A DNA stretch of 62,174 bases, counting the filler, from Hausera hauseri (taxonomy: Eukaryota), in assembly GCA_046269625.1 (NCBI GenBank). It is 11 parts of 11 records of this genome, joined end to end, with 100 filler letters (N's around TTAATTAATTAA, not from the genome) between each part and the next. Parts side by side here need not be neighbours in the genome. Positions count along the whole stretch, not along the records: positions 13,773 to 19,990 come from JBJURY010124317.1; 10 more parts are not named here. One strand, written 5' to 3'. Position 1 is the first letter of the stretch; each line of letters starts with the position of its first letter. The notes under the pieces were generated by a model. It was not told the origin of the DNA. It was given only the letters and a program-made list of their open reading frames with translations, and searched no databases. A program made the position numbers and the translations under genes. Positions 13,513 to 61,583 of this stretch are shown here, one piece after another.

Positions 13513-14299
13513 ATAATTACCAAACAATTGTCTCCTTCACTAATTAAATGATTCTTTTCATCCTTTTTTTGAATTTCCTGACTTTATATTGGCTCTTTAT
13601 TGATTTAACTTTGAATTAAATTTAAACATTAATATTCGTTTAAATTCCTCCTCACATCCCCCTCCTTTAAGANNNNNNNNNNNNNNNNNNNNNNNNNNNN
13701 NNNNNNNNNNNNNNNNTTAATTAATTAANNNNNNNNNNNNNNNNNNNNNNNNNNNNNNNNNNNNNNNNNNNNATGGATCGAGGTAAAATATTTTCTGTTT
13801 GTTCGATAATCCTTCGATTAAGTTGTTTTATAAATGGGATTTTTTGTTTCTTGTTTTTTGAGTTATTACAACTATTTGGGTTGTATAACATGTTGAATAT
13901 GGTAAAGTTTTGAGGTTGTTTTGGTATTCAACTTATTGATGTGAAAATCGGAGCTTTATTTGTGTTGTGGGCCCTATACAAGTCCCGACTATAACAATAA
14001 ATTACGTTCTATTTTTCGATAGTTTTTTGCAGGTGATGTTTTATCGTTCTGGATAAAACAGTTTATGCCTTATTTATCTTTAAGAAATTCAAATCGTAAA
14101 TGCAGGTATTGCTTGCTATATAAGTTATAGTGCATTTTAGAAACTTAGGGTAACTCTAATCACCTTTAAGAGGCGATGGAAACTATAGAATGAAGTTATT
14201 GAAATATGCAAAGTTTATTTAAATAAATACTTTTCGATACGTTTGGCGTTTTCAAAATCGCTGGACCTTGAACTGTTATATCACTTTCGCTTCTCAAAA

Positions 14300-17200
14300 T
14301 TGTTCTTTCCTTCTGGAATTAGGCTGAATTTGAACTACTCTGTTACATGTACCATCCGAATAACGCTTCTGCTCAGCCGCTTCGGTGCGACACAGGGCAT
14401 GTTGTTTTTGCATTATTCAATGTCCAAGTTTCAAGACATCCGCAACAATATTTGTGCCGATATGTTATCTAATCTGACATGGCCTTGTTTGATATTATCT
14501 CCACATACTGGGCAACTATTTTCTTCATCGATATCGTCTCTATCGAGATATATTCTGGGAATAATCTGTATCATCTCGAATAATAGACCATCGTGATCTT
14601 GATATAAATATCCATGGATCATCTTTCATTGTTTATCTATCGAGCTTTTGCGAGGATCGTAATTCACTGATACTAATGTCCAGTCTAAAATAATTTCTTT
14701 GTATAGTTTTGGGACTTTGCCCTCTTTTTGATACTTTTGATGTTGTTTCTTCAACATTATTTTGATTTGTGAGTCCACGTGTAATAACAATTTTCGTGTC
14801 CTTTTTGATTTGAATATTGAGGCTAGGTAATGTCCAATCTTCGTGTTCTTCACATATATGCTTCTTCTAGGGCGTCGCGTATTTTAACCGTTTTTGCGTA
14901 GAATACTGCTTCTTTAATCTTTTGATGACTGCAATATTCTGCCATTACTAACATTTTTATCAAGTCATCCTTAGCGGCATAATGGATATCTTCGTTCGAT
15001 TTTCTTTTCCGCAATATATTTACTTCGGTGAATATTTTCATAAAATCATCTCCTAAATTATTTGGTGGTTTTTCTTATTCTAGAATCTCCTTTAGTTTTT
15101 TTTTCTTTGTGATGTATTCGTTTTTGTTTGCTCTTCAGTATTCTTCGAACTGCTTTGAGGTTTTTCCTTTTGTGATCCTTCTAATTGTTTTGGTTTAGGA
15201 TTTTCTACTATGATTGGATCTGGAGTCCTTGGTTCCTTTTTCTCTAGTGTCTATTGCGTTTTGAAACGTTTCACCCCTTATCTTTTCTTTTGAATAGGTA
15301 ATTATATAGGATATCCATTTCTTTGACGGTCGTATCTCAATTTTCTGTCTACGGCGTATTTTTTGATTTGGAATTTCTGGTATCTTGAATTGAACTGGTG
15401 TTTTCGTGGTTATACCATTTGTTTTAGGTTCAGAACTGAATCCATAGCTAGTGATAGGGCTTTCTTCTATGCTTGGTTGCGTTGTATTGGATCCCTGAAT
15501 AGTTATTCGATAGTTATTTTGTCTTGTTGGTTTAACGATTCTATGTGCACATTATGACCGGTAGTGTTTCCTGTGTTTAGTACTCAACTTTTCTGTAAGT
15601 TCTGCCTTGAGTTTTCGGCATTCCACTCGCGGTCCCATTTTAAAGTCACAATTATATATCGCAACTAATGTGTCTGTTGGCTTGCGGATAGCACTCTATT
15701 AATTCTGACATGTCTGCTGCCCATTGGTTCGAGTATTAATTTGAAACATCATTCTGGAATTGTTTGGTAGCCGATTATTTCTTGTTAGGTTTTCCTGATT
15801 TGCTCTGTGACCATGGGATGTGTTTCCATCTCGCATTCATACGATACTTATGATGGGTAATTCTAATAACTGAACGAGTTCTCGGATTTGATATCCATAG
15901 AGGATACATCCATGTGTATAGTGATTTCGGCCTGAATCTGTTTGACATGTCTGCCATGCATGAGATGTTCCTTTTCGATTCCGTAGTACGTCTCGCACAC
16001 GTTTCGGTCCTATTTCTCGAATTGACACTTCAATCGGAATTCCATTATCCGTCATGTTCTCCACAATTAATTGCTATGATTCTTACATTTCTACTGTACT
16101 GGGACCAGTCTGTACGACTGTACATGTTCGTATTGTTCATTATCTGCGGGTTGTTGTCTAAAGCTTAACGGTGGCAGTTGGATATAAGGAGCGTCGTCGT
16201 ATGTGACCTCAATCATCAATTTTACAGGGAAAACGGCTACACTAAACTCTAATTCAGTTGTACACATGGAAAAGGTACTAAACCTATATTGACTTGCGTT
16301 CTATGGTTGATCTTTTAGCCGATAATATATTTCGCCGTCCGCTAAATGAATATATATATATATATGGTTTGGTGGTAGACTGGTTCGTAGGTGATTAGTT
16401 GTCTTAAAGCGTATGCTTTGACATATTTATCATTTCGCATGGCATACATGTAAATGACCTGATCCTCTTCGGTCATTCCTTTTAGGTTATTAGGAATTTC
16501 ACTCGTCTGATTGAATTTTACGTTTGTTTTTTCATGTAGCTCGTTATTCATCTGTCTATAGATTGACTTCGACTTGGGCTAAACACTAGCATGTTTCTGT
16601 AAGAATTCGTCGATACTGCGTCGCTCGTTTTGGACATTTTCAGTCTCCGTTGCCATCTGAAAAATAAACAGTACGGATTAATCCTAAAAACAAAGTATTG
16701 TTTTAAACCACAGGTTTCGTTTCGGGGCGTCATTACCCTTAATTTCCTTTCTTCGATTTTATGGCGCTTAAACCGGCAATATTTGGCAATTAACCAAAAA
16801 GTCGCAACTAACATTGAGAACGAACGTTTACAGTCCAATGATTGATAAAATTGGCAAGGTCGTTAATCCAGTCGATTTTTATGTAGTGATTGAAAGTAGT
16901 GGTTTCGTTGTCTGTATTTTCGCCTAGGTATGGTACTGCATGGATTTCGTCTAGAGTGCGTAAAGTGCATGTCTTGTTTATCTTTTTCGTATATTTGTAT
17001 TACATAATCCGACTGTGGTTTTTGTATGTTACATTGTATCTGATAACTGTTTTTAAATAATGTCACAATTTGGTTATTGTACAATGTTCGACAGCTTATT
17101 TGAATGTCGTAATATACTTTTTCCACGGAAAACACAATTTTATACTGTTAGGTCAAATATTTAATAGGTATACTTTCTAATTCTCCTTTAGGTATTTTAC

Positions 17201-18040
17201 TTGAAGTGGCGAATTCAGTGATAGTACTTACTTGGGTAATTGGTTTCTTTGTTACCTCAAGTGGAATTTTCCATATCCAGGCTTTCCGATAATAGCTTTT
17301 TAGATAAACACTTGGTTTATTGGGTCGGGTTCTGTATTGTTTTCTGAATTCGTTGCCCATCGGTATTTTACAACATGGATTGGCTCTATCTCGTTCGATG
17401 TAACAATAATTCGCTGAAGGGGTTGGCTTCTTTATTGGTATGAACAGCATGGAAATTTGTCTGTCGCCGATTAATTCTGTTTTGGTTTTTGTCTGGATAC
17501 ATCTATTTTTGATGTCCTAGAAGATCCCGACTATGTTATTATCCAAGATTCGCTTTTGTAGGTCAGTACTTTGGGTAATAATAATTTCCGCTTTGCTTGT
17601 TTTGTTCTGGTATGACCGTTTTGGCTTGCGGATTTACGTTCGCTTGAATTCCATAAAAGTGGTAGTAGTGCATAAGAAATATATTTGTATGTTCGTCCGA
17701 AGTCCAATTCACAACATTTCTGCACTATTCTTTATTGGGAAATCATCGTTATGTTGTTGATTTTGTCAACAGTATTTGAAATTTTACGTGGCCTTTAACG
17801 GATTTACTTGCCCTAAACCAGGCACATGGTTTACTCCAATGCCTATCGTAGACCTTTAACGACTAAGTTTACAATATCTCCATTTTTCTGCATGTTGTTT
17901 CTCGATTAGTTCTTATCGCTTTCCGCTTTGGCGGATTCCGTAGATATCTTCTATGGAGGAATCATCCCAAATCCATTGACTTTTGGTTTTTGGAAGATAA
18001 GCGATTAGTGATAGTGCTAAAACTATCTGGACGTATGATA
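14300..18040 (-). pseudogene. Decayed pol-fused accessory ORF: signal peptide, FN3-like repeats, TM, exonuclease-like domain, conserved unknown domain, RING
   Basis: Signal IVLALSLIAYLPKTKS. CCELDFGRTYKY and QKPQSDYVIQIYEKD resemble the 980-aa ORF. TM-like segment followed by CRFKRHK. Exonuclease-like pieces RIIAINC, GIPIEVSI, ETYYGIEKEHL and GCILYGYQI. C-terminal CPVC...TCPV. Confidence 0.7.
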
Positions 18041-19990
18041 TTAGTCTGGCGATTATAAAAGATTTTGTTCTTTTATCTTGATTTTGACCCCAGTTGTAGC
18101 GTTTGTTTGATCTTATTTCCGTCTTGATAACTTTTTGAATTGATACAACTTTACCGTTCTTATTAATATAGACTGTAGTCGGCGTGGTTTTGGTAATCTC
18201 GTACAGTCCTCTTCCGGTGCGAGTCGGATTTAATGACGTGCCTTTCTTGACTGCTGGGACATAAACCCAATTTCCTTGTTTCAAATTGTGTGGCTTCTCT
18301 TTCTTATAGTACTGTTTTTTAAATTGTTCTTGATATTCACGGATTAACTCTAGCAATTTCCCAACACTTCTGTAACCATGGCTGCAACACTTCCGCGAAA
18401 TTTTGTTTCAAATCTGCAGGATTAATCGTATATGGCGTCATTCCTAAATCTCGGTAATATGGCTTCTCGTTTATATATCATAAAAATGGTGTGAATCCGG
18501 TTGCAGGATGTGGTGTCGTATTTATAGCGAATTGAGTTCCCTCTAAGATTTCATTCAAATCCTTTTGGTCTTTTACGACTATTGTTGATAGAATACGTAT
18601 AACAGTTGCGTTCATACGTTCAACCATTCCATTACATTGGGGAAGGTATGTGGTCGTAGTTAGTCGTTCGATCTCTAATTTCCTCTATCGATCAAGTTCT
18701 AATCGGGAGGTCTGTGCCTGCAGACAACCTTTCTTACTACGGCTTCAGCTAAAGTCTCTACCTTTTGGTCGACTAGTGCTATTAACTCCGCGAAATGAGT
18801 TTGTGGATCAATACAGGTCAGAATATATTTATTTCTGTGGGTTGCAGGTAGTGGTCCTACAATATCCATCGACATAACTTTCATGGGTCTATCTGGTACG
18901 TTTATCGGTTTTAATTCAGATATATAATTTTTCACCCTTTTCTGGTTGCGCATACTTCACAAGCGCTTACCCAATTTTCACATCAGTAAATGCTTGGCCA
19001 ATATTTATTCAGTATTCTTTCCAGCGTCTTCTTCCAAGATGTGCCCAGCTAAATATGAATTGTGTTTTACCACCAGGACTTCCGTTCATAATCTTTTTGG
19101 AATGACTCACTTAATTCCTTTCTTAAGCAGACGATATATCGGTGCGTTTATTTTCGTGTTATCTAGCACAGGTGGCATAGTATCCACACAAACCTAACCT
19201 GTCTTAATTCTTTCTGGATTTGAGGTTCCATACAACCTGATATTTTCAGCAATGATTTATCTGGTCTCGATCCTCCTTCTCCAACTATATGTTCAAAGTA
19301 GGATATTGCATTTTGAGCCCATTTACACGTAAGGTTTAATTTCAATCCAGCTTGCTCTAATCGCATGGGTGTATCGTTAGTATCCTTCAAGCGCTCTTCG
19401 TTCTAGATGCTACCATTACATCGTCTAAGTAGACGAACGTATGATCAACTCCCATTAACATTCTATTCATTATGTGAAAATAACCGATCCAGTTGTTATA
19501 ACGAACGGCATGACATTAAATCCGTATATGTCATCGTGCGTTTTAAACGCCGTTTTATAATGGTTTTCGTCTTCAATTTCTACTTGCCAGAATCCGGACT
19601 GTAAATCCAGAGTGATAAAGCTTCACGGACGACAATGGAAAGGAGTCTTTAATCATGACAGTATTTAATGCTGTATAATCGATGCAAAATCGATGTTTTG
19701 TAGTACCCTTCTTTTTAACCGTAAGTATTGCTGAATATCAAGATCGATAACTCGGCCTAATTATATCTGCTTTAAGCATTCATTCAACTTTTTTATTTCG
19801 GGTCTTAGTGAGTGCGGTGGAGGATACCATTTCGGCATCTTCTGACCTTCAAGTTCAATTTCCTTATTTGAACCCGGTTTTTTAAGCCGAATTGTTAATC
19901 TTAGGGCTTTAACTCTACCAATATCTTCGTCTTGGGCAAAGAGTGATTTATAGCGGCATAACAAGTCATAAAAGCGACAGTAAGATTCAG
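18040..19990 (-). mobile_element. Degenerate Ty3/Gypsy pol (RT, RNase H deleted, IN), same family as the contig-11 element
   Basis: Motifs PPPHSLRPEIKK, RFCIDY, VMPF and LKPINVPDRPMKVMSMDIVGPLP. Colinear with 55760-58350 at both DNA and protein level. Confidence 0.9.
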
Positions 19991-26988: not shown

Positions 26989-26999
26989 TATTAACTTTC

Positions 27000-28681
27000 C
27001 AGCACATTTGGTAATTGTCTCAATAAGTCACAACCTAATACTACATCGTTGGTTAATTGTTCCATTATTGCAAATTCGTAATGGAAGGATTGTCCCATAA
27101 TGTGAACTTCTGGATTCCATTTAAACATCGGTCTTGACATTTGTCCAACGGCTCCCATACTTCCGGGATCTTTTGTTGATAGCGGGTGCAGATGTCCTCA
27201 TAACGTTTGCGGAATTGAATCATTTTTGATATACGACGTTTCAGAACCCCTGTCGATTAGGGCGTAAACTTCCCAGTCTTCAGTAGTATCTTTGACAAAG
27301 GGCCTTCTTTCTATTACTGTTCCATAACAATTCGATGCGACTTTGGGTTGCTTAATCGTCGATATTTTATGGCCGCTGCTTCTAATATCTGGGGAATTAA
27401 TTACACTTTCGGTTAGCTGTTTCAATTCTCCATTTGGGTATAGTTCGCTGTTTGCGACGTTCATATCCTCTGCTTCATGGCTACTGATTAGTGGTTGTCG
27501 ATTATTAGCATGTGATTCTAGATTTCGAAACGTTTGCATTCTTTGAGATTTCCCGAGACTGTTGATCTGGTTTCTATATTTCCAGGTACTCTTGGAGAAT
27601 ATAATATTTTGTGATCATCCACTGACTGTCGGCGACAAGGTGCAGAGTTTTCTCTATACTCGTGCATTTTCCGTAAAACTCCATATTGTTTTGTTGCTTC
27701 ATAAGGGTCTTCAAAACTATATGGTCTTGTATAGATTTCTGTTCGATAGGATCTCATCAATTGTTTGTCACAATCTTCATAGATCGGCGCTGTTGGAGGC
27801 AGCACAGGTGGTGGTGACTTTACGACAGAATACGTTTTATGCCTATTTACTTTGGAGACGGCTACTTCTCCCTTAGGCTCGTCATCATTCGAATCGTTCC
27901 GCATTTTGGGTTGAGGAATTTTCGTCCATATAAGAATGTCTTCGTCTTCGATTATGATAGCCAACATGTCGTTTTCTACCCGTTTTCCTCGTAGGCCTTC
28001 ATAAATTTGCCGAATGGCGTTATAATTGCAGTTAAAATGTTACATGAGAATCTCGTCAACGTAGATAATTTGTATCCATTGGATTAGGGCTTTGATTAAT
28101 TATACTAAGAAATAGATCGCTAAAAATCCAGATGCGGCCTGTCCAAAAATGAAAAATCTTCCACAAATTTTGTATAGTATTTCGGTGTTACTCTGATAAT
28201 GGTCTGCACCAAGTAACGATTCCCATTAGATAGCGAGTATCATCTACCACTGCAAATATGGCCCAATTTAATTCGTGTGTACGTTGGCGCGGAAAAGTGA
28301 GAAACTGTCTAAAAGCTTCAACTTTTGTCTATAAATATCCTTCGTTTAGGCGTCCCGAAATTTGTCATCTGTTATTCCTTTTACGAGATTGGTTCCTGTT
28401 AGATTGTTGGTTGCGGCAGTTATGTATTTGCTTGGTAGGCTTACCCAATATGTTTGGCTACATCTGAACATTGGTTCTCCTAAGCTCGCTTTATATTCTT
28501 CTAAAATTGTTAGCTGAGTTGAGTTAGCTAACAGAAATCTAAGAAGACATAATAATTGTAATAATCGTGGTTTATTCTGGTATAAGACGGGTTCTTGTAT
28601 ACAACGTTTTTCTTCGACATTAATTTGTACATTTTTTCTCACATTCATAGGTTAACAGAACGTCGCCTGTGACTCGGCCAA
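27000..28681 (-). mobile_element. Fragment of the env-before-pol Gypsy family: glycoprotein C-terminus, PTAP linker, protease
   Basis: GRVTGDVLL, RCIQEPVLYQN, GIYRQK and FFIFGQAASGFLAIYFL, then PPTAP, then DWEVYALIDRGSETSYI. Colinear with 58800-60420. Confidence 0.88.
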
Positions 28682-28781: not shown

Positions 28782-30121
28782 CCCAACAGTCGACTAATGA
28801 AATGGGCTATGTTGCTCCAACCGTATGACCTTAAGTTTGAATATAAAACGGGGAAAGCTAATGCAAATGCAGACTACATGTCCAGAATACCTGAAGACAT
28901 AGATCAAGAGGAAGAAATAACGGATAAACCAGGCGTTATAGCAGCCATTTGGAGTATTACAAAAGAAAAATCACTGTTACAAAAACAGCAAAATGACAAA
29001 CAGATAAAACAAATCAAAAAATTTCTACAAAAGAAAATGATATCCTGAGATACTAACCTTCATGTACATTTAGAAAAATTTGTTGAAAATTATGAAATAA
29101 AGAATAGTATTATGTACTACAACCACAAAGGAAAACTAGTTGTAGTTGTCCCACAAGACAAAGTTATTATTAATCCAGTATCACAACAGGGTGCTGGAAG
29201 GACATCAGCGATAAAGAACGTTAGGCAGATTAAAAAGAAAATCTTGGTACATGCCGAAGGATGCTCAGGAATGGTGTAAAAGCTGTCCAATCTGTACCAC
29301 AAGGAAGAATACAGTTTCAAAAATCAAAGTCCATCTCAAACCATTAGAATGGCCACCGGCTTCAATGGAATTTTCAGCAATGGACATTCTAGGACTATTA
29401 CCTATGACAGTAAATGGAAACAAATATGTTAGTGTTTGTAGACTTGTTATCCAGATGGCCAGTTGTAATTCCAATATCAGACCAGAAAGCTCAAACTATT
29501 GCTCAGGCATTTGTAGAAGAAATCATATTTAATTACGGAGCACTCTAAATTATTAACAGATCAAGCTCAAAATTTTACAGAAGTTATGGTAGAAAACTCA
29601 AAAATATTTCGGATATTACAGTTGAAAACAACTACCTATCATCCACAAACTAATGGAACAGTAGAAAGATTTAACGGAATTTTAACCAATATGTTGGATA
29701 CGATGGTTATTGAACGACAATATGATTGGGACGAATTCATAAAGCCTTGTCTATTTCAATCAGAAACACGATTCATCCTGCGACAAAAGAAACCTTATAT
29801 ACCAGTTGATTTAGGCGTCAAAAACACCGGTCTCATATTTAAATGATATGGAATACAAAAAATTGCTGGAAGAGAAACCGGGTTATGTATGGAATTTGGC
29901 AGCAAGACACATAAAGATCTGTCAAAAAGAATATAAAACTAGATATTATGAAAAACCCAAACTGCATAACTTCAAACCTGAAGACAAGATTATGTTGCAT
30001 ACGCCTCTGGGTAAGAAATGAAAACTCCAGAACTGGACAGACCAAACAAAGGTCCTTATATGATCCAAAAAGTAAATGAGATTAATATCTACTTAAATAA
30101 AAATAAAAAAATAAAATCGAC
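28782..30121 (+). mobile_element. Degenerate Ty3/Gypsy pol 3' part (end of RNase H, integrase)
   Basis: Motifs RLMKWAMLLQPYD..YKTGKANANADYMSR, WCKSCPIC, MDILGLLP, TDQ, YHPQTNGTVERFN and GPY at 30051. Several stops and frameshifts. Confidence 0.9.
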
Positions 30122-30202
30122 CCCATAAAAGTCCATGCAAATAGATGTAAGCCAGCACCAACGGATTCTAGGATCAGAAATGAAAACCTCGGTCTATTAC
30201 TA

Positions 30203-33145
30203 TTGACAACATTTGTAATATTAACTTTAGTGACCAGTATATCAGCCCAACCCTTGGATGTAAATTACAAAGCCGTACAAGTTGGAAAATACCCTTGCAT
30301 AAAAATTACGGCTAATCGAAATTTAACGACAGACGAATATATACATATATTCATATCGAAATTACCCGTAGTAGAGAAAGCAACACCAGAGAACTGTGAT
30401 TTGTATTATAATCATTCAATACACGTTTGTTGTGGACTCTCATTCGGAGAAACTTATAGGATCCAATACGCAATTGGAAAAAGTGATCACAGCTACAGAA
30501 CATATTTTTCATTTCCTGGCACTACCCATTATTTCCATCGACCTTATTTTCTTATTTCATTTTACACTAAGGTCATGAAAAATGGACCTTGTGTAACAGC
30601 GGAGCCCGATGTTTCAAACACGAGGTATGTTACATTTAAATACATAATATTTGATGGTATAAATAGCATTCACTGTAAACCAACTTATCAAAACCCGTAT
30701 ATATGTTGCCCTATTGTTTTCGATAAAGAGTATACAATATATTATTGGACAACGTATAATGTTTATACATGGTCAAAAACTTCGGATGGTCCAGAGATAA
30801 TAATACGACCTCCAGCCAAGAAAATTACAACTTCAACAAAGAAAACAACTACTTTGATAATACCATCCAGTATAGTAGCTAGTCTAATAATGGAACTCAA
30901 GAAAGTTGTTAAGGAATTAGATACAATTATCCAACCAACAACTCACTCATTAATTATTACAGTAACAGACTTAAAAACTACGAACGTAAAATTCGAATGT
31001 TATTTTAATCATAAAGTAGTCAGCGAAAGAGTGTTAACTCCGGATGAACCAACATCAGCCTGTGCGTCCTTAGAGGCCGATACTAATTATCAGATTATTA
31101 TAACAGAGCTAGACAAAGACGGACAAGTCCTACAAGTTTTCAAAAAGAAAGAGAAAACGTTGAAATTACCTATGATCGTTACAGAAAGAGTTACAAAAAT
31201 AACTACTATACAAATTCAAGAAGAAACTCCTAATAAATACCTTTGGATAATTAGTATATTATGTACTCTTCTAATATTACTAGTCATACTGTTACCCCTA
31301 ACGATATACTGTTTAAAAGTGAGACAGCGAAGACGTAAAATAAGAAAAATAATAAATCAGTTAAAACTTTTAAGAGAAGATTCTCAAAATATGTTAACAG
31401 GGAAAATAAGTGCACCCAAAGATGAAACTCCACGTACTCCCGAACGGCTAATTTGTCCGTCAATCCAAAAGCCATCGGTTAAAAAGCCGACTAATCCAAA
31501 ATGGCAAGATTGCCCATTAAGTCTCCCTAATGAAAACAATCAAACAAGTAAACGACAAGTTTGTCGATCAATAGACACGACCGTGTGTTACTGTACAAAG
31601 ATACAGAATGAAGTTACTAAATTTTTTGCGATCTACAAAAGCTATAAATTAAAAAAGAATACCTTTATTTCCATCTCTAAATCGTCTTGGTTAATATTTG
31701 TTTATTTCCTTTTAGTTCAAGAAGGATCCGAACTTGTGGACAGAACCAAATCTTTTTATTATAATATCATCAGCAATTTGAATGAAACTGACAACAAAGA
31801 TTATGTCTATTATGGTAAGGCAAACCTAATACCCAACAACTTAAAAGGCCATCTTCTCCATCAAAGATCCGGATTGATAATGAAATTGCCTAATACTTCT
31901 ACAAAACTTTCGGATTTAATTGACATTTCCAGCCAAACCACATCAGTCTTTGTGTCTACAGCAAAAGGCCATCTTCAGATAAAGAGTCGAGCACACCTGA
32001 ATGATTTTACTGACACTTTAGATGTCACGGCCTACACCACGATTCGTTTAGATAAGAAGTTTTATCGAAATGTGACCATCATCTTACGGACGTATGGAGG
32101 CCCATCCCCGATAATATACATCGAAGTTACACGAAGAGAGGTCCTCCCTCAGATCGAATATGAAAAACCGATATACCCTTCCAATCTACCTAATCGTGAC
32201 CAGCTCACAACTGGAATATCCTTTTCCAGATTACCGCTGAAATCAAAGGATCAGATAGTAATATTAGCGACAAATTTCGCTTTCCTCCTAACCCCTTTAC
32301 GTAATAAAGAAACAACTCTCGTGGAACTAACCATTATGGATATTGAAGGGGATATCATTTTGGACGAACTCGTTACTCCGCGAGACCGGATAGATAACTA
32401 CAACAGTCTGATTACTGGATTAAAAGAAGTGAATTTAATCGGACAGATAGATGCCTATCAAGTTAGATCATTCATTAGAAAAGAACTCAATGGAAAGATG
32501 ATAATTGGAATCGATATTTACAACACCAACTTACATCTCGATCTTTTTGATACTAACGCAATATTAGGAATTAGGGATCTTTTATATCATCCGGAAATAA
32601 ATCCCGATAAAGCATTGACCCATAAGCAAGTTTTAATGAAATTTAATAACATCGTATATCCTCAACGTACCAAGGAGAAGGCTGCAACAATATTAAAAAT
32701 ATACAATTCTATCGAAGAATATAAAATTGAGGAAGGAAATTTCCAGAAATTACCCATTCAATTTCAATCAAATCAATCAGAATCATCCGTAAATGAAATC
32801 TTATTAGATAATAAACAATTTATGACTCTGGCTTTGACAGATGATTCTAAACCTGAATTGATGGATATTAGTGACACTTTTGAAACATCTACCCTTAACC
32901 AACTAACTACTAACCAATCGCTCTCAACCACTACTTCTAACGAATCCATTACAATCGATCTGACCCAATCACAAAAAAAGAAGAGAACTACCCGTGAAAC
33001 AGTTACTCTTAAGAAAAAGATCCGGAAAGGAAATCAATGGCTGCGGATAGACTCCGACAATTACAGATATACCAATGGCACTCTTGTAACCTATCCGTTG
33101 AAGCTGGGGACAGCTTCGTCTAAGGAGGGAGAAGATGTTCAATAA
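30203..33145 (+). CDS. Intact 980-aa type I membrane protein in the env position: signal peptide, three FN3-like repeats, TM, cytoplasmic REX4/ISG20-like pseudo-exonuclease
   Basis: Hydrophobic N-terminus. FN3-like motifs GLSFGETYRIQY, IVFDKEYTIYY and LEADTNYQIIIT, with a Thr-rich linker. TM at about 31238-31316 followed by RQRRRK. DEDDh-like pattern at about 32250-32715 lacking the ExoI D/E. The frame is open upstream to the integrase motif VHANRCKP. The ORF ends over the PPT/LTR junction. Confidence 0.8.
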   Translation: MTTFVILTLVTSISAQPLDVNYKAVQVGKYPCIKITANRNLTTDEYIHIFISKLPVVEKATPENCDLYYNHSIHVCCGLSFGETYRIQYAIGKSDHSYRTYFSFPGTTHYFHRPYFLISFYTKVMKNGPCVTAEPDVSNTRYVTFKYIIFDGINSIHCKPTYQNPYICCPIVFDKEYTIYYWTTYNVYTWSKTSDGPEIIIRPPAKKITTSTKKTTTLIIPSSIVASLIMELKKVVKELDTIIQPTTHSLIITVTDLKTTNVKFECYFNHKVVSERVLTPDEPTSACASLEADTNYQIIITELDKDGQVLQVFKKKEKTLKLPMIVTERVTKITTIQIQEETPNKYLWIISILCTLLILLVILLPLTIYCLKVRQRRRKIRKIINQLKLLREDSQNMLTGKISAPKDETPRTPERLICPSIQKPSVKKPTNPKWQDCPLSLPNENNQTSKRQVCRSIDTTVCYCTKIQNEVTKFFAIYKSYKLKKNTFISISKSSWLIFVYFLLVQEGSELVDRTKSFYYNIISNLNETDNKDYVYYGKANLIPNNLKGHLLHQRSGLIMKLPNTSTKLSDLIDISSQTTSVFVSTAKGHLQIKSRAHLNDFTDTLDVTAYTTIRLDKKFYRNVTIILRTYGGPSPIIYIEVTRREVLPQIEYEKPIYPSNLPNRDQLTTGISFSRLPLKSKDQIVILATNFAFLLTPLRNKETTLVELTIMDIEGDIILDELVTPRDRIDNYNSLITGLKEVNLIGQIDAYQVRSFIRKELNGKMIIGIDIYNTNLHLDLFDTNAILGIRDLLYHPEINPDKALTHKQVLMKFNNIVYPQRTKEKAATILKIYNSIEEYKIEEGNFQKLPIQFQSNQSESSVNEILLDNKQFMTLALTDDSKPELMDISDTFETSTLNQLTTNQSLSTTTSNESITIDLTQSQKKKRTTRETVTLKKKIRKGNQWLRIDSDNYRYTNGTLVTYPLKLGTASSKEGEDVQ

Positions 33146-34087
33146 TCGGCCTGAATTGGTAAATAATCCAATGAAATACAAAATAAACAATTGAATTTTG
33201 AATGTCAGTGATTTTTATTTGTATTTCATTTAAATTAAATGGATTTTTATTTTCCTGTTATTTTACATAATGAAATGTAAATTTTTCTTGTGATTATATT
33301 TGTATTAGTTGGGTATAAATATCGTAATTTTTATGACTGAAACATAATGCAATTTTCTGGTGACAACGAACGACAATTCGTACCTACCTTTATGATGATT
33401 TACTACAATACTTGTAAGCTTTTTCTTTAATTTTTGTACATTTTTTGGTTATAGATTGTAAATTATATATTTTTAATACATATTAACCTTGATTTTAGTT
33501 CCGTTGTAAAGTATAATATTTAGTAGTAAGGATTAATTAATATTAAAATATTAACCCGTTTTGGTATTCCGGCCCTGTAATCTGCCGGATGTATAAATTC
33601 TAATAAGTAAGGGGTAAACCGTCAGTGTTCCTCCTGAACGGTCCTCACACTAAGGTCAAATAAAACTTGAAGGCAACCCCACAGGTTGCTCCTAAGAATA
33701 ATTAATTTCTGGTCTAGGGGGAAGGAGAAACCCCAGACTATATTTAGTCCTAAGTAAAGAGTATAAGTTTAAGGTCGTAAGACTAATAAATCTTAGACTA
33801 TAAACTTATCAACTAGCTACCGTATTTATATAGCTGATGACAACAATTTTCTGGAAGAGAATTTTTCGTTTAATTCTGTTCGAATTTGTATCAATTAATT
33901 CTTATTTGCCAGATTATTTAACCAATTCTCCACAAATGGCCATGCAATTTTAGTATATTTTCTGTGCAATAAATTTTTAAAGATTTCGATTATAATCCAA
34001 CTTAATTCGGTTTCGATTTCGTATTTAGAATTCTTTCGTTTTCGGTTATTTACATTTGTACATACTTCTTTGTGAACTTTTATAACA
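33136..34087. repeat. Probable LTR sequence (TGTT...AACA) with an inward-facing polypurine tract on each side
   Basis: On the + strand, PPT AAGGAGGGAGAAGA (33122-33135) is followed by TGTT. On the - strand, PPT AGGGAAGAAAAA (34088-34099) is followed by TGTTAT. Contains a TATA box, poly(A) signals and a hairpin cluster. Confidence 0.55.
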
Positions 34088-34099
34088 TTTTTCTTCCCT

Positions 34100-35470
34100 G
34101 AACGGCACTCTCGGATGTGCTCATTGCGTCAGAGGAGGTGCCGCTCAGTCGGTTCATTCTTCTACGTAAGTCCGTTTCCAAATCCGATTAGTCTCTTGGC
34201 GATTGTAAGTCAAAGTTGTAGGATGTAGTGGGTTTTTGGGGCAATATTTCTACTACCTCTTTATTTTCTCCACTGACATAGTACTTCAGTCTGGTAGCTT
34301 CGGCTGTACATACAGGACAAATCGTTTTCCCCTTTTTCAGTGTTCACGTTTCTGAACAGTATCTACAGTACTTGTGAGTACAGTCTTTATTGTCCAATAC
34401 CACGAATTCTTGGTAGAGATTAGCGTCGCAAACTGGGCATTCTTCCTTTTCATCTCCATCTATGTCTACGAGGTTTTCATCAACTTCTATTTATTCGAAT
34501 ACTAGTCCTTTTTTATCTTGATATAAGTATCCATATAAGCGTTTTTGTTTAGGGTCTATAGAACTTTTTTAGGGTCGTCTGATACTGTGACCAAAGTCCA
34601 CTCGACTACCTCTTGTTTATCTAAATCAGGTATTCCAGTTTTCTTGTATTGCCTTTTTAGTTGAATTCGAACTTGAGTATCCACAGGAATTGTCAATCGG
34701 TTAGTACCGTTCATTGATTGGAATATCGGGGTTAGATATCTGCCAACAGTGGTATATTCTCTTGTGTATCCGTTTCCACTTACTATTCTCCTGGGAACGG
34801 TGGATATATGGAATATCGCTTCCTTAATTTTACCCTTGCTATAATATTCGGTCATGACAAGCATTCAGTGGTATTCTTTTACTTGACCAAATTCCGTGAC
34901 TATGATTGGGACATCTTCTTCCCAATTCTTCCAAAGGACGTTTACTTCTGTCTTGAGGGAATTGGATTTAATAGTTTTCCATTGGCCTTCGTTGTTTTCT
35001 TTCGTTTCTTAACTGATCGGTATTTCGGTCTGATCGTCTATCCGTTCATTTGGTGTGGGTCTGTTTGATGCTGATTTGATTTCTTTCGTTTTCTCTTACT
35101 GGTTTTGCTTCCTTTTTGCTAATATATTCTAGGAAGAAGGTTTTTGTCTTTGTCCTCTCGAATTTTCATCTTGAGCTCTACTGGTTAACGGTTTTTGTCT
35201 ACTGTTTGATGTTTCTGCTGAACTATTGTGTATAGTTTCTCGAAATCGATTATATTTTTGAGGTTTGATTTGCCTATAAACTCTTTTTGGAATTTTTATA
35301 TCAAGACTTTCGGATTGTTGTCGGATATCACATTCTATACGGGACTTCTAGGTTTCTACTCATGTTCCCGTCGTAATGAGGCATAGATGTCTTTTAGAAA
35401 CCTTGTTCTTTGACTTGCTGACATCCGTTTAGGAAATTTGAATTCTCCGCCATTCATGGCCTCTAACATA
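34100..35470 (-). pseudogene. 3' part of a second accessory-ORF copy: exonuclease tail, basic region, conserved domain, RING finger
   Basis: MLVMTEYYSKGKIKEAIF...EWTLVTVSDDPKK..YGYLYQD matches MLVMAEYCSHQKIKEAVF...DWTLVSVNYDPRK..HGYLYQD at 14431-15041. RING: CPVC...CTHKYCRYC...CPVC. Confidence 0.8.
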
Positions 35471-35576
35471 ATCTTAAATTGTGATTCACGCGACGCTGAC
35501 GGAAGCAGACACCCTCTTTTCCTCATTATATTATTTTCAACTTGACTTACAACTGCTGGATTCAGACCCAGTTCAC

Positions 35577-35652
35577 GGATGGCATGCCATTATTGTTGAC
35601 GGACATGACGTACGGCAACTCATTGCAGCATTTGAAGAGGCAGCCAATCACA
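35577..35652 (+). pseudogene. TKT: Transketolase fragment at the contig end
   Basis: GWHAIIVDGHDVRQLIAAF matches the animal transketolase motif GWHAIIVDGH. Only about 25 codons are visible. Confidence 0.6.
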
Positions 35653-54040: not shown

Positions 54041-55759
54041 GTATGTTCATAAGCTAACTTTATCATATATTTCCATGAATAAATGTCATTTCAGGAACTG
54101 AAAGATTTGTTTTGGAGTTTGGAAGGAAACAGTCACGCCTTAGTAAAGTGATTATTTTTACAAATTCATTTCTGGGAACATTTGCTACGAGTGAGCACTT
54201 TTCCGGGGACATTTCCAGGGACAACATTCAGAAGTAAAATTGTACATATGTACGCACTCATGCACACATATTTAACTATGTACTTAACATTTTGTTGTTG
54301 CAAGATCTGAATTAAGCTACAGGGAAAATTAATGTATTTAGTGATGACAATAAAACTTGATGCATGAAAGCTGGCATAAAAAAATGTTGTATCCTTGTCT
54401 GGCCTAACGCATAACTAACAGATCTAATAAAGTAAATTTAAGGACAGTTTTCAGTGGTTCCAAACAAAAATAGATGGTCCTACTCCCAAGTTTAGATGTA
54501 GTAGTCAAAGAACTTCTGTGTTTCTTTATCTCAGTGTGTTATTTTGAAAGCATTTTTGCAATTAAACACTGCACAAGACAAACTTTTCATTTCTCAATAA
54601 TTAAATAACAAACACGGCTTATCAAATCATATAACTTGCGCTACAACAGAATAAATGAAAGCAACTGAACACAAAGCTGACAGCGATGCAAAGAATGTCT
54701 ATTTTCCGCACTTCTGTTTTTCAACTACACTTTTAACTAATGGCATCTATTGGCCACTTTTCCCCAGGACTGCAGAGTCGGACCAAAAATCTCAGACTCG
54801 GATTCCAACACCTTTATATCTGGTGCCTCCAGCACAGATGCCTTTTGTATATATCGATATAACTGAAAATAAATTATAAATGTACTTATTATATTTTTCT
54901 TATGTCAATTGGACACACGTAGTGTGTAAGATAAGGACATTAACAATGGACTCAGAGGGCAAATTTTCAAAAATAAAAAAACTGTAAAATGCATGTTAAA
55001 AAAATAGGGCATCCCATGATCAAAATATCAGATGTTTGTACAATCTACAATGGCACAAATTTAGAAAAAAACCGATGTAAAATATTAAACCATTTTTCCC
55101 ATGCTGTCTTCATGTAACTTTTTAATCTGCTTCATGACCTATTGTTTTTTTTTCTCATGCTTACATTTGTGCAACAAGTACTAAATTAAAATGAATGATG
55201 TGGAGATTCACCAGCAGTGAAAAAGGAAGAACTTGCATTTCATCAACTTGTGACCATTTTGAAAGCATTGCCTCCATTTTATCAAGAAAAGAAACAAATA
55301 AGGCTGTTGCTGCCAAAGCAGCTCTGCAGATGTGAAAACGTTCATTTCTACAGAGAGAAGAGTTGGAATTCATTGTGATCTTGGTTTGGTCTAGTAGTAA
55401 GCAGTTAGCTTAAGGTAGAAATGACAATACATACAATGCAGATGAATTAAATCACTGCATTCCTGCAAATCTAGACATTACTGGAAGCTACAAAAAATGA
55501 TTTTACCAAAGAATNNNNNNNNNNNNNNNNNNNNNNNNNNNNNNNNNNNNNNNNNNNNTTAATTAATTAANNNNNNNNNNNNNNNNNNNNNNNNNNNNNN
55601 NNNNNNNNNNNNNNCAGCAGACATACCAGAGGGCGGGTATTTTAAAACCCTACCCCGGCTGGGCGGTGATGTGGACGGTGTGGATGCGCACTCAGCCAAC
55701 ACGGTCGTCTGCCTGTATGGGTCAATTTTAATGATGTGTATTTAATGGCTACTGGATAG

Positions 55760-58700
55760 TGTACATAAACCCAATTTCATGGTTCCAAATTATGTGGTTT
55801 CGCTTTCCTATCATATAGCTTTTTAAACTGCTCTTGATCTTCTTGAGATAACGCTTTAGCGATTTCCCAACACTTTTGCAATCGCATCTGTAATACTTCC
55901 GCAAAATTTTGTCCTAAATCTTCGGGATTGACCGTGTATAGCGTCATTCCTAAATCCGTGGGTAACACGGCTTCACGTCCATACATTGCGAAAAACGCCG
56001 TAAACACTGTTGCTGGGTGTTGAGTAGTATTAATAGCGAACTGAGTTCCTTCTAAAAATTCGTCCCAAGCTTTTTGGTCCTTTGCTACTACGGTTGATAG
56101 TATGCGTTTGACGATAGCATTCATCCGTTCGACCATTCCATTACACTGAGGGTGATATGTGGTAATTGTTAATCGTTCGATTCGAATATCTTGGTGATCT
56201 TCTCGAATAGTTCACTTGTGACATTTCTTCCTCGATATGTGAGTATCTGATCTGGGGGCTCGTATCGGCAAATAATTCTTCTTACTATGGCTTCTGCCAA
56301 GGTCTCTGCCTTTTGATCAATTAATGCTACCAACTCGACAAAGTGAGTTAATCAATCAATACAAGTTAAGATATACTTATTGTTTTTGTGGGTCGTAGAA
56401 AGAGGTCCTACGATATCCATAGACATGACTTACATAGGTCTATCGGGTACATTAATTGGTTTTAATTGGGCCATGTAGTTTTTCGTCTTCTTTTGTTTAG
56501 TTGCACATACTTCGCAGGCATTTACCCAATTCTTCACATCAATATAGATACTGGGCCAAATGTATTTATTCACTATTCTTTGTAATGTTTTCTTCCAACA
56601 CATGTGTCCGGCTAAATATGAATTCTGTTCCGACGTTAGCGCTTCAGTTCGTAAACTTTTCGAAATAACTATCAATTTCCTTGCTTTCCGTTCGTAATAT
56701 AAAATATCCTCATTGCTCTTGTCATTTAAGACGTAGTATTTATGTCCATGTCTGTGTAAATGTTTCTTTAACTGTTGTCCCTTCGGCATGATATCTTTCT
56801 TAGCAAATTCTATAATCTGTTGAATAACTTTATCCCTTCTTTGCTGTGAGGACATTTTAATTGCTTTATCCAGCGCTAAGGCACGTTGGCGATCTACTAT
56901 TGCTTCGAGTTGGCATTTCTTCATTACCGTGATTGCGCTTGTTGTAGTCTTTAATCTCGATAGTGCATCTGCATCTATATGTTTATTTCCTGGCTTATAC
57001 TGGAATTCGATATTGTATCTCGATATTTTTTCGATCCATCTGTTAAGTCTGCATGTCGGGTTATTTGCTCGGACTTTTAATGTCGTAACTGCCTTGTGAT
57101 CAGTGACAATTATAATTTTCTGCCCGTATACGTAAACGTTGAAGTGTCGAAGTGCTTCTTTTACAGCTAGAGTCTCTAGTTCGGTAACAGAATAGTTTTT
57201 CTCAGCTTTTTTCAAGGAACGTCCTCCATGAGCAATCGGGTGTTCTAATTCTTTATCTTCTCTTTTCTGCGCTAATTCATATCCAATGCCTTCTTTACTG
57301 GCGTCTGTCTTGATTATGAAGGGTAAGTTAAAATCTGGATATCGTAAAACAGGCTCACTTGTTAATATCTTCATCTCGTCGAAGGCTTTCTGTTTGACGT
57401 CTGTCCATTTCCATTTAATTCCTTTTTTGAGCACGCGGTATAGGGGTGCATTAATTTTTGAATTATCTAGTACATAGGTTGCGTAGTATCCACAGAGTCC
57501 TAACCAGTGTCTTAATTACTTCTGATTTTGTGGTTCCATGCAATCTGATATTTTGTTTAATAACGATTTATCTGGTTTCGATCCTCCTTCTCCAACTATA
57601 TGGCCCATGTAATATACTGCGTTTTGAGCCCATTTGAATTTCTTCGGATTCAACTTTAATCCGGCTTGTTCCAATCTCATCAGTGTGTGTTCAATAACCC
57701 TTTAAGTATTCCTCTTTTGTCCTCGATGCTATCATTACATCGTCTAAGTACGCAAAAGCATGATCCAATCCCATTAGCATTTTACTCATCATTCTCGTAA
57801 ATATGGCTGGTCCAGTAGTAATACCGAACGGCATGACATTAAATTCATAAACGCCATCATGTGTTTTAAATGCCGTTTTAGCGGTTTTCGTCCTCAATAT
57901 CTACTTGCCAATATTCGGATTGTAAGTCCAGAGTGGTGAATTATTTCGCTTTTGAGAGTCGGTCTAAAGCCTCTTTCACTGACGGTAGTGGAAAGGAATC
58001 TTCCATCGTAAGATTATTCAATGCCCTGTAGTCAATACAAAATCGAGGCTTCGTTGTACCTTTCTTTTTAACCATAAGGATAGGTAAGTACCAGGATCTG
58101 TAATTGGGCTTAATTATATCGGCCTTAAGCATTTGTTTAACTTTTTTCGTTATCTCGGGCCTTGACGAATGTGGTGGAGGATATCATTTTGGCATCTTCT
58201 GATCCTCCAAATCTATTTCTTCGTTTGAACTGGGCTTTTTCTTGAGCGGAATAGTCATCTTTAGCGCTTTTGCTCTACCGATATCTTCTTCGTCTTTAGC
58301 AGGAATCGATTTATATCGGCATAATAATTCATACAATCGACAGTAAGATTCAGCAGAGAATTTAGTTTCGACATGAGGTGGAAATTCAGCATTTTTATAA
58401 GGCTTCTCTTCAATAGTTATCGACGATACTCTACGTATCTCCTAAAGTAGTGTAAGCATGAAGCTTGACGGGGGTCTGTGCATTATTAGTTATCCTGATC
58501 GGCACTCGACCGGAATGCACCTTTGTTAGTATGTTACTAAGTGTTATATTCGGATCTAACGTATCTTTTGGTTCAAAATACACCGGCTGATCGTCATCTT
58601 GTTGTATTGGCATAAATTATCACTTCTGTTCTTGGCGGGATTTTCTCGTCTACGGGTATCCAGACCTCTCCAAATTTTCTATCCTTAGAGTTTTTCACGC

Positions 58701-59680
58701 CTTTATTTGGTCTAATTTCTATTAACTTCCCTGTTTGCAAGTCAATCGCTATGTTGGGCAATCTTTTTAGCAGGTCACATCCTAGTACTACGTCATCAGT
58801 AAATTGCTCCATAACTGCAAATTTGTGATGGAAAAACTGTCCAACTATTTGAACTTCTGGGTTTCATTTAAACATTGGTTTTGACATTTGATCAAAAGCT
58901 CCTGTACTTTCTGGATCCTTCGTAGACGGTGGGTATAACTGTCCTCTCAGTGTTTGAGGTATTGAATCATTTTTGATATATGACATCTCCGAACCTGTGT
59001 CAATTAAGGCGTAAACTTCCCAATCCTTAATAATGATTTTGGCGAAGGGTCTTCCTTCTATTACCGTTTCGAAACAATTTGATATATTCTTTGAACGTTT
59101 TACCGCCAATATTTTGTGCCCATTGATTCGGATTTCGGGGGAGGATACAACTGTCTTAATTCTTCGTTCGGATATAACCCGTTGTTTTCTATGTTCAATT
59201 CTTCCGCTTCATGCGTACTAATTAATGATTCTCGATTGTTACTGTGTAATTCAGTATTCTGGAAGGTTTTTAGCCTTGAATTATCCCAAACCGTCGATCT
59301 AGTTTCTATATTCTTAGGTTCTCTTCGCGAGTACAACATCCTGGGATCCTCTGTGGATTGTCGGTAGCACATTTTCCGTAGAATTCCGTAGCGTTTTGTT
59401 CTCTCATAAGTATCCTCTACATTAAATGTTCTCTTATAGATTTCCGTCTGATATGAACTCATGGTTCGTTTATCACAGTCTTCATAAAAGGAGCGGTAGG
59501 AAGTAACATGGGTAATGGCGTTTTAACGACAGAGTACATCTTATGTCTATTTATTCCTGAAAGTACTTCTCCTCCCTTAGGTTCGTCATCATCTAAATTA
59601 TTTCTTCGTATAATAGGTTTTGTAAATTTTCTCTTCCGTAGGAATATGGTTTCCTTTCCGTTTACGATTATAGCCGACAT
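55760..59680 (-). mobile_element. Degenerate Ty3/Gypsy pol: PTAP linker, protease, RT, RNase H, integrase
   Basis: Motifs ALIDTGS, RFCIDYRALN, VMPFG, YLDD, KTDAS, YSVTELETLA, DALSR, the HHCC region, MDIVGPL and YHPQCNGMVER. Confidence 0.95.
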
Positions 59681-59699
59681 GGCGTTCTACGTCCGATTT

Positions 59700-61583
59700 T
59701 CATCTATTTTCTTCGTACGCTTTTAAGAATTTCCCAAAAAGCGTTATGATTGCAGTCAGTATTTTTGAAGAAAATCCATTTAATGTAAATATTTCATACC
59801 TATTTATTACGGCTTGGATAACTGCCTTGATCATTTGTATCAGAAAATATATCGCTAAGAATCCATATGCAGCTTGTCCGAATATCAGAAATCTTTCCCA
59901 CATTTTGTAAAGTATTTCGGTTGTTATTTGCTCATAATGGTTTACGCCAAGTAATGATTTCCATTTAGCCTGATATCGTATATCATCTACTACAGAAGCC
60001 ATAGCTCGATTTAACTCATGTGTTCGTTGTCATGGAAAGGCAAGGAATTATCTAAAAGCCTCAATTTCTTTTGTCCGGTATATACCTTTCGATGAGATGT
60101 CTTGAAATTTATTGTCCGTGATTCCTTTCGCAAGATTTGTTCCGGTTAATTTATTTGGATCAACAATAATACCTCCATTTGGCAAGCTGACCCAGTCTGT
60201 TCCACCACGTTTAAACATAGGTTCTCCTAAGCTTGCCTTACAATTGTTAAGGATGGTTGGTTGGGTGGCGTTATTTAATAACACTCTCGTTAATGGTGTA
60301 GCTAATCTCGGAATATTTTGGTAAATAACAGGAAGTTCTTGAATGCAACGTTTTTTTTCAACGTTGATGGGTACATCTCTCTTTTCACATTCGTAGGTTA
60401 GTAGTACTTCGCCTGTTACCCGACCGAAAATTCCGTCTCATAGGAATTATTGGAGAGGCCAATTCCGGATTTGCATATATAAGAGCCATTTTAGTTCTCA
60501 TAATTTCGGTATCCAATTTGTAATCATTATCATTTTATGATATAATTCCGTTATTCCGACTTGTCCTTTATAGTAAAAGTAATCGTCTTTATTCTTCAGG
60601 TAATCTTCGATGCGGACATCCTGCGTTTCTAGCTTATAAGTTTTTGCGCTTATTTCTCTTTCTGAAGTGAAAAACGCCTCGTAGTTCGTAGCAAACATCA
60701 CTACATCACACCGAGAAATAATCTCTTTTTTAATAAATTTCAATCCATGTTGATCCGAAATTAATATAGTAGGTGTAGAGTGTTCTGATACATCCTCACG
60801 TGTCCTCGAGTTGGTTTTTGATTTGTCCACATTTTTTTCCTGTAGTCTCATTGAACTTTAGTTCTTTAATCTTAATAAAATTACAATTTCTCCCAGGAGG
60901 TTTCCATATTATAACCGAGCTTTTAAAAACGCAGGTTCCGTCTTGTAAATGGCAATTTTGATTCTCAGTATATAACTTAGTGACACTGGAACATTACCTT
61001 CTGTGATCGCATTTTTGATTCGTAGAAATCCACAACCACCACGTTTGATTCTAATCCTTTTCCGGTGTCGCATTCGGCTCCATTACAATATCCACTATGC
61101 GTATCTAATCTTTTGGCCACTACTTTGTATGCCCTGATTATTTTTTGTGGCTGCATCTCCAATTGCATACTATTCCATTGTATTCTCCCAGTTTCCTTGG
61201 CTTGCTTGCAGTGTTGACGTTCTAAGTTCATTGGAATTAATGCGGTTGTTGGTTTGATTATAGATGAGTGTCCATGAACCAACCCACAGTGAAAAATGCT
61301 ACGTGATCGTCTGAACATGCATTCTATTCCATCTAGCGATATCAATTCTTGCTGCTGATACAGGAAATAATTTTTCTCGTTTGTCTCCAACTTGTGTGGT
61401 CTAGCATCTTCGCATACTTCCAGATCCATTAGGGAATATCTCTCCTAGCTTAAACTTATCGCAGTCGTAGACAGTTACAGCGCCTATATTCTTTATTAGC
61501 ATCATCAAGGTGAGTAGGCTAATTAGCCAATTCGATTCATTCTTCCGGCATCCAACGTTCGCCGTTGTCAAATTACGTAGCAT
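59700..61583 (-). pseudogene. Chuvirus-G/herpes-gB-like (class III) envelope glycoprotein, frameshifted, upstream of pol
   Basis: Signal WLISLLTLMMLIKNIGA followed by YDC. Motifs C...RSIFHCG..H.S, C....TG, FGRVTGEVLLTYEC, RCIQELPV and GIY..EIEAFR. C-terminal hydrophobic segment FLIFGQAAYGFLAIYFLIQM. Confidence 0.82.

Follow-up and report, generated by a model that had tools for sequence, protein, structure and literature searches.

Invertebrate long terminal repeat (LTR) elements are usually drawn in the order gag-pol-env, and Burro is treated as an oddity. Burro/GYPSM1, the giant gypsy-like elements of planarians, carry env between gag and pol, all in one frame of a polyprotein of ~4,900 amino acids (aa), and their cargo includes RING, TRAF, BIR, BCL2 and apoptosis-related domains (PMC6431247). 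GAG-ENV-POL errantiviruses with an env of the herpes simplex virus (HSV)/glycoprotein B (gB) type have been described in Nematoda, Bryozoa and Platyhelminthes (Chary and Hayashi, PMC13524379). In this study, we have analysed a stretch of 62,174 nucleotides from Hausera hauseri (GCA_046269625.1; hereafter the window), made of 11 contigs joined by N spacers and numbered c1 to c11 in order, of which four matter here: c4 (13773-19990), c6 (24250-28681), c7 (28782-35652) and c11 (55615-62174). As judged from their sequences, these are separate decayed copies of Ty3/gypsy LTR elements, and c4, c7 and c11 belong to one integrase clade. On c11 and c6 a gB-type fusion gene lies upstream of pol; on c4 and c7 the integrase is followed by a cassette that encodes a signal-like segment, an ectodomain, a transmembrane (TM) segment and a region in which, by prediction, an AlkB-type fold and an ISG20-like DEDDh exonuclease are fused. 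A first-pass annotation of the window had proposed that one pol family links both membrane proteins in a single element. Our firmest new result is the AlkB-fold/exonuclease gene family with its acceptor-led starts, while one element with both the gB-type gene and the cassette is the simplest history of these copies and, in our judgement, a fairly probable one.

Elements with gB before pol, namely Burro and the GAG-ENV-POL errantiviruses, were already known, and we did not find the post-integrase cassette described. Like the gB-type errantiviruses, c11 has a Ty3/gypsy pol with a gB-type env upstream (PMC13524379); the words "exonuclease", "fibronectin", "RING" and "accessory" have 0 occurrences in the main text of that paper, whose supplements may list such elements and whose initial search prefilter limited regions to 10 kb. 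Burro resembles the present lineage in its env, which matches mononegavirus fusion glycoproteins, its RING and MATH/TRAF cargo and its accessory open reading frames (ORFs). However, the cargo domains named for Burro lie in the polyprotein ahead of env or in an upstream ORF, whereas here a signal-ectodomain-TM unit follows the integrase and an AlkB-fold/DEDDh gene occupies the 3' end, neither of which is mentioned for Burro in the accessible text (PMC6431247). The Juno and Vesta LTR elements of bdelloid rotifers also have a 3' DnaQ-like exonuclease ORF and small TM ORFs in the env position, but their ORF3 is RNase D-like DEDDy, unlike the ISG20-like DEDDh domain fused to an AlkB-type fold in the present family (PMC5408684). 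Similarly, orchid Ty3/gypsy elements are large and carry an extra AlkB-fold ORF (an N6-methyladenosine, or m6A, demethylase) with in vitro activity and a close resemblance to plant demethylases (PMC9289625), whereas in the present family the fold is remote (5-12% identity), a conserved metal triad is not seen and an exonuclease is joined to it. DnaQ-like accessory domains are known (PMC6338049), and human ISG20 and ISG20L2 share the DEDDh fold and sequence with the present family, which is however element-encoded and fused to a second domain. In a literature search that had most subscription papers outside its reach, we found no description in retroelements of a fibronectin type III (FN3)-like TM protein after the integrase, or of an AlkB-fold/ISG20-like fusion.

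The accessory region was modelled on aa 540-880 of the c7 ORF from 48 sequences (pLDDT 88.6), and the model splits into two domains. The second aligns with ISG20 over 155 residues (Z 17.2, root-mean-square deviation 2.5), and the family profile matches ISG20L2 at E 3e-31, the other E of the ISG20/ISG20L2 pair being 1.4e-19. The first (model residues 1-138) is closest to ALKBH6 (Z 12.5, root-mean-square deviation 2.9, 136 aligned), Ofd2 (Z 12.0) and ALKBH7 (Z 11.8), with 5-12% identity to these structural matches and no usable match in Atlas. Based on these models, we predict that the accessory gene joins an AlkB-type fold to an ISG20-like DEDDh exonuclease. Among the 46 of 48 family rows that cover the catalytic positions, D-E-D/E-H-D is kept in 33 and lost in 13, c7 being one of the latter. 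The AlkB-fold columns hold one His in 36/40 (Ser in c7), one Arg in 30/39 and one acidic residue in 43/44, in a census that is unmapped to the AlkB active site.

A metagenome scan yielded 19 loci (L001-L019) from 253 candidate stretches, in two assemblies and partly as near-duplicates. In L006 the exonuclease gene is followed by ~1.6 kb of LTR-like sequence, a primer binding site-like motif and Gag (PF03732 and CCHC); we take the motif to be of the tRNA-Lys type. The exonuclease gene is preceded in L007 by a signal-ectodomain-TM ORF and two short ORFs (one coiled-coil-like), in L019 by a protease fused to a TM ORF, and in L003 by, in order, two RING ORFs, another ORF, a C3HC4 RING ORF, a full TRAF (MATH E 1.9e-27) and short ORFs. 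The membrane protein of L007 has no detectable sequence similarity to that of c7 (best E 3.8), and layout alone is shared. Given the gene order in L006 and the variable cargo in L003, L007 and L019, we therefore regard this unnamed gene family as a 3'-terminal component of metagenomic LTR elements whose cargo varies, some of them having TRAF and RING. In the P0036 cluster, 12 of the 15 members listed (of 24) lie on contigs of 15.6-17.0 kb, sizes that suggest the unit length. A strict acceptor stands 0-8 nt before an early ATG in 13 of the 19 exonuclease ORFs (1-3 ATGs per ORF) compared with 42 of 1295 ATGs overall, and of six L003 starts examined four obey the strict rule and all six have a YAG at most 4 nt away.

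Several other features of these loci deserve mention. L003:1-6730 is the 3' region of an LTR element, with a TRAF that has RING, zinc finger, coiled coil and MATH, and YAG stands just before most ATGs. L006:2843-6784 resembles head-to-tail tandem elements sharing one LTR. L019:3-1679 has an aspartic protease in frame with a two-hydrophobic-segment protein, no reverse transcriptase (RT) or integrase between them, and is probably a non-autonomous derivative that keeps its cargo. Where a polypurine tract would be placed before the putative 3' LTR, five loci have a C run instead (GAGGAC...TTT..AAACCCCC.GAGATATGT; L003:6882-6925, L004:3015, L005:4812, L006:3003 and L007:5540), and L001 has a purine tract.

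In the window, the signal-like and TM segments of c4, c7 and c11 were called from hydropathy (Kyte-Doolittle, KD) alone, and by this measure hydrophobic segments lie at the expected positions in all three (Table 1). The c7 cassette forms an unbroken ORF. In a phmmer search over 1.84 billion representatives, the region after its TM segment matches 43 proteins of 160-662 aa, and the best stretch falls in the ectodomain for 0 of the 43; Pfam has no match for the ectodomain, a word-index search with the c7 ORF was empty, and scans of viral contigs and genome contigs found no relative. Structure-based comparison suggests an FN3-like fold: Atlas gives fn3 in 10/10 best matches (score 0.84), the top Foldseek matches of a single-sequence model are FN3 arrays (E ~2e-4, TM-score ~0.2), and by VIA the same model reaches Z up to 7.3 for FN3, tied with C2 domains. 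The FN3 identity given in the first-pass annotation is thus kept as a lead from Atlas, with Pfam silent and a model pLDDT of 44.6.

The unbroken c7 ORF stands behind a broken pol, a pattern that suggests either that the ORF is under selection or that recombination occurred recently. Against P0054, the c7 pol has 5 frameshifts and 3 stops over 1326 nt, and the following 3036 nt have 0 breaks where ~12 would be expected at 4 per 990 nt (P ~5e-6). One reading of this contrast, to which the loss of the catalytic residues of c7 also lends itself, is that the ORF is a co-opted receptor-like host gene whose tail holds two dead enzyme domains, lying behind a dead pol, and that c4 is a fossil relative. 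We regard this as unlikely, though worth keeping in view: the ORF lacks an in-frame Met ahead of its signal-like segment, the break rate varies with the reference (the c7 pol has 3 breaks against each of two others), and recent recombination with a younger copy gives the same pattern. Co-option of the c7 gene would in any case be compatible with an ancestral element that carried both membrane proteins.

The corresponding region of c4 is decayed, and its similarity to c7 was assessed with frameshift-aware scores against shuffled sequence, given as z. The whole ectodomain reaches z 4.2, a score attained by 0/40 shuffles, which is weak but above shuffles. Against the family profile, the AlkB-type N-domain of c4 scores z 9.8, the exonuclease core alone z 2.0 (not significant) and both combined z 10.5, ending at 15776, with two negative controls flat. 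Of the decayed FN3, TM and exonuclease homologs that had been reported in c4, we therefore retain the ectodomain, a TM segment split over two frames and the AlkB-type domain; the exonuclease does not stand by itself. The pol had also been said to run without a stop into a signal peptide: the integrase tail is in frame with it (ORF 17913-18407), but the pol is broken and the ORF stops soon after the hydrophobic segment. It could be argued that this post-integrase similarity is mostly chance or a later insertion, and that c4 had exonuclease/RING cargo only, without a true second glycoprotein. The ectodomain gives tblastn E of only 0.8-2.5 and sub-block z of 1.1-3.9, and no TM segment exceeds the threshold in any single c4 frame. 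However, order and spacing agree between the two contigs (signal, ~350-380 codons, TM, basic stretch, acceptor, AlkB fold), the ectodomain taken whole scores above shuffles, and an ORF with two hydrophobic segments precedes the exonuclease gene independently in L007 and L019, which together make this explanation improbable.

The cassette had been drawn as one FN3-TM-exo-RING stretch. In c4, an acceptor-like T-tract and CAG directly precede ATG 16656; because this acceptor-like site and ATG start the exonuclease gene, two or more genes, and not a single polyprotein, seem to make up the stretch. The terminal RING is borne out in c4 as a remnant (half-RING near 14400-14530, PF00097 E 0.0017), but its block matches the convergent second copy at the c7 end and not the c7 + strand ORF. 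A RING within that ORF was ruled out, since the c7 RING lies on the opposite strand in the second copy and the intact ORF is RING-free; in that - strand copy, the family profile did not detect the exonuclease (z -0.4). We found no paired LTRs in c4 or c7, and LTR similarity between them beyond 12 nt was no better than shuffles (44 vs 46.8 +/- 7).

The gB side is carried by c11 and c6. In c11 the fusion gene precedes the protease, with PTAP at 59500 in between, so that the gB-type gene placed upstream of this pol by the first-pass annotation is upheld (PF24664 E 8.7e-36). Both c11 and c6 have a gB-type env with signal-like and TM segments upstream of pol; c4 has its contig edge in RT. The position of env in c11, between the 5' region and pol, agrees with the Burro order, in a copy whose frames are broken and whose 5' end is missing. 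The Gag of the proposed "Gag-gB" was not recovered: the 241 aa before gB, which end at the contig edge, have no Pfam match, and a single short patch resembles the L006 Gag (E 0.015). Burro has MATH, BIR, BCL2 and ankyrin domains before env and a dUTPase-like domain between protease and RT; Pfam, which is less sensitive than an HHpred-type search, matches none of the former in these 241 aa and no dUTPase-like domain in c11 58300-58900. A search with the c11 pol among proteins of 633-2000 aa, a range that leaves longer polyproteins outside, gave 39 matches with full-coverage identity of at most 33%, PF24664 being listed for none.

What joins the two sides is pol. The Ty3/gypsy order of protease (PR), RT, RNase H (RH) and integrase (IN) is seen in c11 (RVP, RT, PF17917 and PF17921 in sequence) and, as RT then IN, in c4. 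By blastn, c4 19108-19990 is 73.1% identical to c11 57412-58353 over 944 nt, and c4 18203-19107 is 70.5% identical to c11 55701-56670 over 970 nt, while c11 56671-57411 (~740 nt, including RNase H) is missing from c4. The 16-mer noted earlier is present in both (at 19975 in c4 and 58338 in c11), as is the peptide LKPINVPDRPM. The close colinearity claimed for the two pols is, however, interrupted by the ~740-nt gap in c4, and they are separate copies, aligned at 70-73% DNA identity. Contigs c4 and c11 as overlapping parts of a single copy were ruled out, the DNA identity being too low. Relative to P0054, the c4 pol is interrupted by 11 frameshifts and 8 stops over 494 aligned codons and the c11 pol by 3 frameshifts and 6 stops over 845 codons; every pol of the window is broken, and none has the intact, multicopy, full-length ORFs that characterise gB-type errantiviruses.

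In the 141 integrase columns that the three copies share, identity is 72% between c4 and c11, 35% between c7 and c4, and 40% between c7 and c11. An integrase tree (IQ-TREE, 227 columns, 38 rows, low-coverage P0069, P0076, P0078, P0087 and P0088 excluded; support read from the unrooted tree) groups c4 with c11 at 100 and both with c7 at 99. The cassette is in c4 and c7, which bracket c11, and would therefore be ancestral to c11; a gain of gB at any point then gives both genes in one element, whereas never having both takes a gain and a loss. Neither contig shows the flank of the other because c4 begins inside RT and the similarity of c11 ends in the integrase tail, at 55701, 86 nt from the contig edge. 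The covered parts (c11 55701-62174 and c4 14283-18203) sum to ~10.4 kb without LTRs, in keeping with the element of more than 10 kb that had been proposed, and, as had been remarked, no single contig shows it whole, c4, c6, c7 and c11 each being partial. The claim that both membrane proteins belong to one lineage thus finds backing in the tree, but no sequence has both, Gag went undetected and the cassette comprises at least two genes.

The same data can be read as two sister families, c11 and c6 having gained gB and lost or never kept the cassette, c4 and c7 using the FN3-like TM protein in the env position, and no element ever having had both. The DNA identity of c4 and c11, at only 70-73%, leaves room for this, related elements carry modular cargo, env is usually found in the post-integrase position, and c11 departs from c4 inside the integrase tail. 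However, this departure cuts the tail and looks like a truncation or a foreign insertion rather than a natural end, and the sister families would require that the short c11 branch saw both a gain and a loss, where a shared element needs a single gain. We consider them possible but doubtful.

Starting from the gene order of each contig, the integrase clade, the predicted folds and the acceptor-like sites, we infer that a full-length element would have a gB-type fusion protein before pol, a type I membrane protein after the integrase and a likely spliced accessory gene. One long ORF would cross the endoplasmic reticulum membrane twice, yielding gB and the second type I protein: an internal signal segment would direct gB into the lumen, the gB TM segment would return the PTAP tail and PR-RT-RH-IN to the cytosol, and a second internal signal right after the integrase would export the FN3-like ectodomain, anchored by a second TM segment. 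Signal peptidase and the element protease could release the parts, and PTAP could recruit the endosomal sorting complexes required for transport (ESCRT), to which this motif is linked in budding. The accessory gene, with a RING at its end in c4 and in the second c7 copy, may be expressed from a subgenomic RNA via the acceptor before its ATG, by cis-splicing or by spliced-leader addition, and its protein probably binds or trims RNA, helping the element to evade RNA sensing or silencing by the host. A role in host signalling or cell contact seems more likely for the second membrane protein than one in attachment. The full picture would be an undescribed invertebrate Ty3/gypsy lineage of ~15-17 kb whose particle displays two different glycoproteins, a class III fusogen and an FN3-like surface protein, both derived from one membrane-threading polyprotein, and which adds spliced anti-defence genes (AlkB-fold/ISG20-like nuclease, RING, TRAF), as in complex vertebrate viruses; we put it forward tentatively, as a possibility.

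A number of observations weigh against the full-length element inferred above. Both genes together occur in none of the window contigs, 19 loci or read pieces; cargo varies among L003, L007 and L019, and gB or RT is found in 0/19 loci. With c4-c11 identity below 80%, a gain of gB or a loss of the cassette in between is possible, and the tree was built on broken copies with few outgroups, chosen by similarity to c11. The acceptor count does not represent 19 independent cases because two metagenome assemblies supplied all the loci and some of these are near-duplicates. As to the proteins, the FN3-like fold of the c7 ectodomain is unproven, and the exonuclease positions of c7 read A-N-T-Q-K, all five catalytic residues being lost. 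AlkB and other 2-oxoglutarate (2OG)-Fe(II) dioxygenases have an HxD...H metal triad and a 2OG-binding Arg; in the column census of the AlkB fold, the HxD...H pattern is not conserved. The contigs derived from the reads of two sequencing runs, with no RNA run listed among them, are short, and none spans the stretch or ties the cassette to gB.

If true, the existence of a broader lineage in which a second surface protein is combined with accessory genes that have acceptor-led starts would mean that a complex-virus organisation arose in Ty3/gypsy elements, and the host pathways opposed would be ubiquitin/TRAF signalling and the sensing or decay of RNA. The fusion of an AlkB fold to an ISG20-like domain is open to test, as intact natural members exist, and the c7 ORF, itself unbroken although its pol is dead, is a candidate co-opted gene.

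Table 1. Coordinates of element features on contigs c4, c7, c11 and c6 of the window
Contig	Position	Strand	Feature	Basis
c4	18203..19990	-	Decayed Ty3/gypsy pol (RT, RNase H mostly deleted, integrase); contig edge inside RT start	blastn to c11; RVT_1 E 8.9e-6, rve E 5e-5
c4	17913..18407	-	Integrase C-terminal tail in frame with signal-peptide-like hydrophobic segment 18059-18003 (KD 2.19)	ORF list; MLVIN_C weak, E 0.08
c4	17037..17900	-	Cys-rich ectodomain, decayed; weak homology to c7 aa 48-219	Score 64; 42.4 +/- 5.2 in 40 shuffles, highest 57
c4	16788..16870	-	TM remnant split over two frames (halves near 16850, 16820), then basic stretch	KD windows 2.38, 2.11
c4	15776..16680	-	Acceptor-like site before ATG 16656, decayed AlkB-fold domain, faint exonuclease remnant	Profile domain E 1.1e-4
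c4	14391..14954	-	Conserved block and RING remnant	32-64% aa (5 segments) to c7 - strand copy, tblastx E 1.6e-27
c4	14272..14295	-	Possible purine tract / LTR start (TG at 14283), weak	10/12 nt match c7 junction
c7	28782..30106	+	Decayed RNase H-integrase, more distant copy (35-40% aa to c4/c11)	Alignment
c7	30107..33145	+	Unbroken 1012-aa ORF: integrase tail, signal-like segment (aa 28-46), ectodomain, TM (aa 378-396), predicted AlkB-fold domain, ISG20-like domain without catalytic residues	
c7	34087..35652	-	Second, convergent copy, 3' end: block shared with c4, RING (PF13923 E 3.4e-5), purine tract then TG at 34087	
c11	61452..62174	-	Cytosolic-looking region, AT-hook-like motif, running into gB signal-like segment (61526; KD 1.92)	Pfam without match
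c11	59700..61526	-	Broken Monjiviricetes/gB-type fusion glycoprotein, TM at 59873	PF24664 Monjiviricetes_fusion E 8.7e-36
c11	55701..59522	-	PTAP tail, protease, RT, RNase H, integrase	blastn, Pfam, hydropathy
c6	27003..28681	-	Second gB-PTAP-protease copy	67.6% DNA identity to c11

The other contigs of the window hold eukaryotic genes and transposons, from which we take the host to be an animal. A Tc1/mariner DDE transposase lies at 26207-26944, where the c6 element breaks off after the protease. On contig 8 (39275-44208), a 1.45-kb tandem duplication (78%) carries intronless single- and double-RING ORFs, possibly the cargo of a similar element. ORFs of contig 2 (4458-5792), with no Pfam match at E 1e-6, resemble by eye pieces of endonuclease VII and protein-primed PolB, which we presume to be of Polinton type. 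A BEL/Pao-type integrase end (DUF5641) lies on contig 9 (45362-50170) together with a peptide of repeat origin that we take to be typical of teleost fish, so that the window may mix organisms. In the read data, pol has a much greater summed depth than the cassette, a figure that is not copy number and was not used as evidence, and two 268-nt pieces identical to c4 (15773-16040 and 17149-17416) occur in a second public run with a different organism label.

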